Shown here one piece after another: positions 52,383 to 53,611 of a stretch of 64,000 bases of DNA. Both the position numbers and the translations under genes were made by a program. Under the pieces are notes generated by a model, which was given only the letters and a program-made list of their open reading frames with translations, was not told where the DNA came from and ran no database searches. The DNA comes from Escherichia coli. GTDB taxonomy: Bacteria; Pseudomonadota; Gammaproteobacteria; Enterobacterales; Enterobacteriaceae. Each line of letters opens with the position of its first letter. Positions within the stretch are counted from its first letter, which is position 1. The DNA is taken from the NCBI RefSeq assembly GCF_003334335.1, contig NZ_QOWQ01000014.1. The stretch is one strand, 5' to 3'.

Positions 52383-53501
52383 ATGCATAACCAGGCTCCA
52401 ATTCAACGTAGAAAATCAACACGTATTTACGTTGGGAATGTGCCGATTGGCGATGGTGCTCCCATCGCCGTACAGTCCATGACCAATACGCGTACGACAG
52501 ACGTCGAAGCAACGGTCAATCAAATCAAGGCGCTGGAACGCGTTGGCGCTGATATCGTCCGTGTATCCGTACCGACGATGGACGCGGCAGAAGCGTTCAA
52601 ACTCATCAAACAGCAGGTTAACGTGCCGCTGGTGGCTGACATCCACTTCGACTATCGCATTGCGCTGAAAGTAGCGGAATACGGCGTCGATTGTCTGCGT
52701 ATTAACCCTGGCAATATCGGTAATGAAGAGCGTATTCGCATGGTGGTTGACTGTGCGCGCGATAAAAACATTCCGATCCGTATTGGCGTTAACGCCGGAT
52801 CGCTGGAAAAAGATCTGCAAGAAAAGTATGGCGAACCGACGCCGCAGGCGTTGCTGGAATCTGCCATGCGTCATGTTGATCATCTCGATCGCCTGAACTT
52901 CGATCAGTTCAAAGTCAGCGTGAAAGCGTCTGACGTCTTCCTCGCTGTTGAGTCTTATCGTTTGCTGGCAAAACAGATCGATCAGCCGTTGCATCTGGGG
53001 ATCACCGAAGCCGGTGGTGCGCGCAGCGGGGCAGTAAAATCCGCCATTGGTTTAGGTCTGCTGCTGTCTGAAGGCATCGGCGACACGCTGCGCGTATCGC
53101 TGGCGGCCGATCCGGTCGAAGAGATCAAAGTCGGTTTCGATATTTTGAAATCGCTGCGTATCCGTTCGCGAGGGATCAACTTCATCGCCTGCCCGACCTG
53201 TTCGCGTCAGGAATTTGATGTTATCGGTACGGTTAACGCGCTGGAGCAACGCCTGGAAGATATCATCACTCCGATGGACGTTTCGATTATCGGCTGCGTG
53301 GTGAATGGCCCAGGTGAGGCGCTGGTTTCTACACTCGGCGTCACCGGCGGCAACAAGAAAAGCGGCCTCTATGAAGATGGCGTGCGCAAAGACCGTCTGG
53401 ACAACAACGATATGATCGACCAGCTGGAAGCACGCATTCGTGCGAAAGCCAGTCAGCTGGACGAAGCGCGTCGAATTGACGTTCAGCAGGTTGAAAAATA
53501 A
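52383..53501 (+). CDS. ispG: HMBPP synthase (MEP pathway, IspG/GcpE)
   Basis: 372 aa; [4Fe-4S] ligand cysteines (CPTCSR..., GCVVNGPGE). Confidence 0.95.
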
Positions 53502-53590
53502 TAACGTGATGGGAAGCGCCTCGCTTCCCGTGTATGATTGAACCCGCATGGCTCCCGAAACATTGAGGGAAGCGTTGAGGGTTCATTTTT
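53502..53590 (+). ncRNA. sroE: candidate SroE-like 3'-UTR-derived small RNA
   Basis: ~90 nt between the ispG stop and hisS, with hairpin gggaagcg/cgcttccc (53511-53529) and terminal hairpin tgaaccc.../...gggttca (53539-53584) followed by ttttt (53585-53589); position matches where SroE is reported in E. coli. Confidence 0.45.
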
Positions 53591-53611
53591 ATATTCAGAA
53601 AGAGAATAAAC

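Follow-up and report, generated by a model that had tools for sequence, protein, structure and literature searches.

Processed 3'-UTR sRNAs, such as CpxQ from cpxP and SroC from gltIJKL, share the terminator of the mRNA to which they belong. An intrinsic terminator lying within an operon and followed by an internal promoter is, in turn, a general motif of operon architecture.

SroE, the small RNA of the ispG-hisS spacer, is a long-standing entry of both the E. coli K-12 annotation and Rfam; recognizing it is of little weight for discovery. One published list places it among sRNAs that are processed out of longer transcripts (PMC8313858), and a 5'-monophosphate end has been recorded for it (PMC3415461 Table S2); it was still termed uncharacterized in 2018 (PMC6172242), and later papers quantify it by RNA-seq or arrays (PMC12539622, PMC12266141, PMC3136514). 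In Salmonella it was scored as 'required' by TraDIS (PMC3632133). We describe here the ispG-hisS spacer of the window, i.e. the whole 64,000-nt stretch of E. coli DNA that was analyzed, together with the equivalent spacers of related bacteria. The promoter/terminator architecture added to the known element is a modest refinement, which partly rests on prediction; the comparative result is of modest value, in that it explains the essential behavior of the SroE region in transposon screens and argues against a published T-box-like hypothesis.

Identity and anatomy of the spacer

Positions 53200-53900 of the window are 100% identical to E. coli K-12 BW25113 and are present in 5,426 of 5,426 complete E. 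coli genomes, and positions 53187-53887 match MG1655 base for base. The Rfam sroE model, RF00371, matches 53501-53592 on the plus strand over its full length (model positions 1-92 of 92), with 116.6 bits and E = 1.8e-28, far above the gathering score of 51 bits. The MG1655 ncRNA gene sroE (b4761; NC_000913.3, 2640595..2640686, minus strand) maps exactly to the same interval and is identical in sequence. The segment, for which the first-pass annotation had rightly proposed an SroE-like 3'-UTR sRNA with its own terminator, is therefore already known: it is the catalogued E. coli gene sroE, the type sequence of RF00371, annotated in the MG1655 reference and missing from PGAP-annotated genomes.

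The three genes ispG, sroE and hisS lie on the same strand (Table 1), ispG and hisS being separated by 110 nt. The ispG stop codon, TAA (53499-53501), is directly followed by a second TAA, and its final base is the first base of sroE. A 46-aa ORF (53548-53688) was rejected, since its start codon falls in the non-conserved interior of hairpin 2 and it overlaps hisS out of frame; minus-strand ORFs spanning the spacer were also rejected as genes. A 16-bit antisense match to the 'sroE' model most likely reflects the palindromic nature of the hairpins. The other Rfam matches above gathering score in the window are listed at the bottom of Table 1.

Table 1. Features of the ispG-hisS region and other Rfam matches in the window
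Feature	Position	Strand	Basis or remarks
ispG CDS	52383..53501	+	ORF list; RefSeq annotation of the identical K-12 sequence
sroE, 92-nt small RNA SroE (b4761), ispG 3' UTR	53501..53592	+	Rfam RF00371; MG1655 annotation
Weak -35-like hexamer TGGGAA (3/6 matches), 17-nt spacer to -10	53510..53515	+	motif matching only
Hairpin 1, perfect 8-bp stem, GGGAAGCG-CCT-CGCTTCCC	53511..53529	+	arms perfectly complementary
-10 box TATGAT (5/6 matches) of the putative hisS promoter	53533..53538	+	in linker GTGTATGATT
Hairpin 2, branched, 47 nt	53539..53585	+	outer stem TGAACCC (53539-53545) / GGGTTCA (53579-53585)
5'-triphosphate start	53546	+	U00096.2 position 2638663, 6 reads (PMC3415461 Table S1)
U-tract TTTTT, then ATATT	53586..53590	+	annotated SroE 3' end at 53592
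Shine-Dalgarno-like AAGAGA of hisS, in conserved block AGAGAAnnAAC-GTG	53600..53605	+	spacer alignment
hisS CDS, GTG start	53612..54886	+	ORF list; annotation
GlmY	2938-3085	+	Rfam match above gathering score
naRNA4	31757-31828	+	Rfam match above gathering score
iscR stability element	32545-32654	+	Rfam match above gathering score
ryfA	40029-40332	-	Rfam match above gathering score
IS128	40464-40672	-	Rfam match above gathering score

Two hairpins follow the ispG stop codon, as had been noticed from the sequence alone. The first lies exactly where it had been placed; in the minimum free energy structure it spans 53505-53536, and it is likely to be the 5'-protective stem of SroE. A linker of 9 nt separates it from hairpin 2, whose start had been correctly located, while its end had been set one base short, at 53584. 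Since 53585 is an A, the T5 run, previously put at 53585-53589, is shifted by one base as well, and its distance from the hisS GTG, which includes the AAGAGA ribosome-binding site, is 21 nt instead of 22. The 113-nt segment is predicted to fold with -41.6 kcal/mol, compared to -24.2 +/- 3.7 in 200 dinucleotide shuffles, none of which was as good (z = -4.73), and for read-through RNA the outer stem of hairpin 2 is predicted to pair with probabilities of 0.83-1.0.

A standard terminator scan of positions 52300-55000 reported no site; its rule accepts loops of 3-8 nt only, and the silence may be explained by the branched hairpin 2 exceeding this limit. A second terminator/promoter scan, which permitted long hairpins, recovers hairpin 2 (-19.9 kcal/mol) and, directly 3' of it, UUUUUAUAUU, a combination of hairpin and U-rich tract. 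From this anatomy, and from the conservation described below, we infer that hairpin 2 and the U-tract act as an intrinsic terminator for transcripts from ispG and upstream genes. The Term-seq data of Adams et al. 2021 have no 3' end called at the SroE terminator (NC_000913.3 2640590-2640619), and the name 'sroE' is absent from their supplementary tables, so that study confirms neither strong termination nor abundance of an SroE 3' end, which is the chief experimental reservation about the strength of the terminator or the amount of SroE. The same data report 3' ends within ispG and hisS; strong ones fall in the hisS ORF at NC_000913.3 2640434 and 2640283, corresponding to window positions 53753 and 53904, 141 and 292 nt into the gene.

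The putative hisS promoter

The linker between the hairpins carries a TATGAT hexamer, which is invariant in 21 out of 21 Enterobacteriaceae spacers. In E. coli and in most of the 22 Enterobacteriaceae spacers of SroE type it ends one base 5' of the hairpin-2 arm, and in 3 of the 22 it overlaps this arm by three bases. Hairpin 1, on the other side, overlaps the -35 and spacer region. Primary transcripts enriched by terminator exonuclease were analyzed by 5' RACE-seq by Kim et al. 2012 (PMC3415461), whose Table S1, which holds many low-count internal starts, lists, with 6 reads only, a 5'-triphosphate start at G53546, the printed upstream sequence ending in ...GTGTATGATTGAACCCG. This base lies 8 nt 3' of TATGAT and would give hisS a leader of 66 nt; we estimate at about 1% the chance of finding such a hexamer correctly spaced from a random 5' end. 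A standard promoter scan of positions 52300-55000 found no site, because the -35-like hexamer falls below its rule of at least 4/6 matches per hexamer. A literature search on the hisS promoter gave nothing relevant among the papers covered, and the SMRT-Cappable-seq supplements make no mention of the ispG-hisS locus. With moderate confidence, given the low read count and the weak -35, we place a putative sigma-70 promoter belonging to hisS itself in the linker and hairpin-1 region. A second 5'-triphosphate start assigned to hisS (U00096.2 2638974, 4 reads; PMC3415461) corresponds to window position 53235 on the plus strand, within ispG and 377 nt upstream of hisS.

The position of the start is informative, because it falls one base 3' of the 5' arm of the terminator, and transcripts from the hisS promoter thus lack what is needed to form it. 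RNA starting at 53546 is predicted to fold at only -9.2 kcal/mol, with a hairpin ending 8 nt 5' of the U-tract and with the 3'-arm bases unpaired (probability of being paired 0.26 or less). On the grounds of folding, hisS-promoter RNA would escape termination. The same geometry is found in the 22 SroE-type Enterobacteriaceae spacers, where the predicted start lies 5-9 nt inside the hairpin; these are not independent cases, their sequence being conserved.

Taken together, the spacer probably is at once the terminator and 3' UTR of ispG, the source of processed SroE, and the promoter and leader of hisS. Upstream transcripts would stop at hairpin 2 and its U-tract, and the terminated ispG mRNA would be cleaved, probably by RNase E, at the stop codon, where the sequence is rich in A and U; the stable product, SroE, would be 92 nt long, with hairpin 1 on one side and the terminator hairpin on the other. 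The hisS promoter, with its weak -35 in hairpin 1 and its -10 in the linker, would produce an RNA missing half of the hairpin, able to pass the U-tract into hisS. The terminator would in this way insulate hisS from upstream transcription, leaving the gene's own expression unblocked.

As to the 5' ends, no promoter-like site was found 5' of 53501 by promoter scans of the locus, and the 5'-triphosphate start is internal to SroE, not at its 5' end. From the closeness of the terminator to an essential gene, the first-pass annotation had derived two options, regulation by read-through or a processed fragment that is stable. The processed fragment agrees with published classification and end mapping (PMC8313858, PMC3415461); the pair of options was incomplete, lacking the putative promoter which, being within the element, would relieve hisS of the need to rely on read-through. 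The joint model of terminator, processed RNA and promoter accounts for this closeness, for the uneven conservation of the spacer and for its score in TraDIS, 'required' being the expected outcome where an essential gene, hisS, has its promoter and leader. SroE may mainly be a stable by-product.

Conservation and promoter nesting in other families

The comparison set consists of 80 ispG-hisS loci from Enterobacterales, Orbales and Vibrionaceae, retrieved with a HisS query, a choice which yields a sample without bias toward the RNA. Synteny of ispG and hisS is preserved in 80 out of 80 loci, with spacers ranging from 13 to 411 nt, and nearly all hisS genes start with GTG, the exceptions being one ATG, one TTG and three Orbales loci with an unresolved start. 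Spacers are mostly 17-50 nt long in Vibrionaceae and Orbales, where SroE does not fit; matches to the RF00371 model are confined, among the compared loci, to Enterobacteriaceae.

Mean pairwise identity, evaluated by block in 21 Enterobacteriaceae spacers, is 0.99 in the arms of hairpin 1, 0.98 in the linker, 0.96 in the U-tract and 0.92 in the outer arms of hairpin 2, and drops to 0.41 in the hairpin-1 loop and to 0.37 in the interior of hairpin 2, also variable in length. The figure for 4-fold degenerate sites of hisS, taken as a comparison, is 0.73, well below that of hairpin 1 and linker. In Enterobacter the interior of hairpin 2 is absent altogether, and the element is cut down to a minimal terminator, GAACCCAUUCUUUGGGUUUUUUUU. 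In 22 Enterobacteriaceae spacers the equivalent hairpin ends 25-30 nt 5' of the hisS start codon. Stem cells are paired in 92% of cases in the 21 Enterobacteriaceae, compared to 26-47% when partners are slid; covariation support is weak, just two pairs changing on both sides, since there is almost no variation in the stems of this family. A cross-family MAFFT alignment, in which the 5' arm of hairpin 2 was in the wrong register, was left out of the pair counts. The retention of outer stem and U-tract around an interior which varies or is missing fits a terminator, not a ligand- or tRNA-sensing leader, and what is conserved of hairpin 2 is the part a terminator needs.

Some spacers carry large insertions. 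In Pseudocitrobacter (L006:1816-2000) the insertion lies within hairpin 1, and in Klebsiella sp. BIGb0407 (L054:1761-2000) within hairpin 2; the Rfam match is abolished in both. The insertions in Photorhabdus (L048:1756-2000) and Yersinia thracica (L076:1590-2000) resemble ERIC/IRU repeats, showing 4-6 mismatches to what we take to be the ERIC primer sequences.

A mosaic hisS allele was observed in E. coli R32_14_1F (L083/L084). Its ispG and SroE spacer are K-12-like, with three substitutions, all in the hairpin-2 interior, and hisS diverges abruptly from codon 2 over about 450-500 nt (window 53615-54100; 60-83% identity, with a 5-aa insertion), before returning to about 95-100% identity; the recombination junction lies at the hisS start codon. 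For the N-terminal 140 aa of this HisS, the closest among the retrieved loci are those of Superficieibacter (91%) and Budvicia (89%). When positions 53200-53900 are the query, identity is 80-90% in 54 of the 5,426 complete genomes of the species, which may share this allele.

Outside Enterobacteriaceae, a near-consensus sigma-70 promoter, TTGAAN-18-TATAAT, is conserved in spacers of Yersiniaceae, Pectobacteriaceae, Hafniaceae, Morganellaceae and Budviciaceae (L022, L025-L029, L031-L033, L036, L040, L041, L044, L045, L047, L049, L050, L052, L053, L076). It lies about 35 nt upstream of hisS, or about 97 nt in three Yersinia, and has the variant form TTGATG-17-CATAAT in one Hafnia locus (L029). 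In Rahnella, Serratia, Pectobacterium, Edwardsiella and Hafnia the promoter is located inside the equivalent hairpin (GAACCCGA...TCGGGTTCAUUUUUU), with a predicted start 1-3 nt 5' of the 3' base of the hairpin. The arrangement in Morganellaceae is serial, hairpin and U-tract preceding the promoter. Spacers of Pantoea and Tatumella contain a terminator-like hairpin but no convincing promoter, so nesting is common, not universal. Enterobacteriaceae, E. coli included, are without TTGAAN-18-TATAAT, and the corresponding segment appears deleted.

As judged from these predicted sites, the nesting seen in families other than Enterobacteriaceae would provide independent support for a promoter lying within a terminator. 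A wider interpretation, which we regard as slightly less than an even chance, is that such a nested module is the conserved purpose of the spacer, SroE being its stable by-product. The promoter would then have shifted, during the evolution of Enterobacterales, from the 3' side of the hairpin, as the TTGAAN-18-TATAAT of Yersiniaceae, Pectobacteriaceae and Hafniaceae, to its 5' edge, as the TATGAT of Enterobacteriaceae, nesting being preserved throughout.

Alternative roles and comparison with known systems

A role in trans, with SroE acting as an Hfq-associated base-pairing sRNA from the ispG 3' UTR and this function driving its conservation, is compatible with terminator and promoter roles; as the driving function we consider it unlikely. 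RIL-seq of E. coli starved of nitrogen for 24 h detected SroE as one of 26 Hfq-associated sRNAs (PMC12539622), and a K. pneumoniae hfq mutant contains 1.75-fold less of it (PMC3136514); SroE lacks, however, the (ARN)x Hfq motif (PMC5575007). Of ten predicted targets assayed by gel-shift, nine failed, and the tenth, the ligB mRNA, showed weak binding in vitro (PMC6172242). In an sRNA screen, SroE had no recorded phenotype in biofilm, motility or fimbriae (PMC4606813), and its expression is constitutive across conditions (PMC12266141). The sequence of hairpin 1 and linker is conserved beyond what structure alone requires, as would be expected of a pairing RNA, but only one single-stranded stretch is conserved, and it is the one occupied by the -10 box, so that its conservation is explained at the DNA level. 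A trans role is not established, its support being limited to the reported Hfq association, and the conservation of this 'sRNA' sequence may reflect promoter and terminator constraint on the DNA rather than a trans-acting RNA function.

Much less probable is the proposal (Barquist et al. 2013, PMC3632133) that SroE is a cis-acting leader of hisS, sensing tRNA-His or histidine and switching a terminator in the manner of a T-box or attenuator. The constant position of SroE directly 5' of hisS, its 'required' score and the presence of a terminator-like hairpin 21 nt ahead of the start codon would suit such a leader. However, the only possible sensing domain is the poorly conserved interior of hairpin 2, and the idea is unsupported, because a sensing domain would not tolerate the loss seen in Enterobacter; moreover, a start beyond the 5' arm leaves the hisS-promoter transcript with no terminator to switch. 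Positions 53300-53800 have no match to T-box (RF00230) or to any other cis-regulatory Rfam family even at E <= 1, and no leader ORF is conserved, the only ATG (53548) lying in the variable interior and being lost in, e.g., Pseudescherichia. The short spacers of Vibrionaceae and Orbales are without any such element, and hisS attenuators are discussed by Naville & Gautheret 2010 in Firmicutes only.

Least probable of all, the hairpin-1 palindrome GGGAAGC-N5-GCTTCCC could be an operator in the DNA, bound by a dimeric regulator that acts on the hisS promoter, the RNA hairpin being incidental: its half-sites are invariant around five bases free to vary, a single compensatory change occurs in hairpin 1 across 21 species, and the palindrome reaches into the -35 and spacer region, but it has no known regulator, occurs once in the window and is replaced by unrelated hairpins in other families, and overlapping RNA-stability and promoter constraints could likewise freeze its sequence.

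The reading of the spacer as terminator, source of processed RNA and promoter may finally be set against described systems. With SroE of K-12 (RF00371, b4761) there is no difference, sequence, coordinates, structure model and ispG-hisS context being the same. T-box leaders (RF00230) resemble it in that a tRNA synthetase gene is preceded by a structured element that includes a terminator; SroE differs from them in having neither an RF00230 match nor a conserved sensing domain, its interior being variable or absent. Like CpxQ and SroC, SroE is an mRNA 3' UTR with its 3' end at a putative intrinsic terminator, a 5' end probably cleaved near the stop codon and a reported Hfq association. In contrast to SroE, CpxQ and SroC possess validated targets and a seed that is single-stranded and conserved, and, unlike theirs, the DNA of SroE also holds part of the next gene's putative promoter and leader. 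With the intra-operon terminator-promoter motif, the locus would share both the ending of upstream transcription and a downstream gene provided with its own promoter; whereas the two elements of that motif are arranged in series, E. coli and several other families nest the promoter, and the predicted start falls inside the hairpin.
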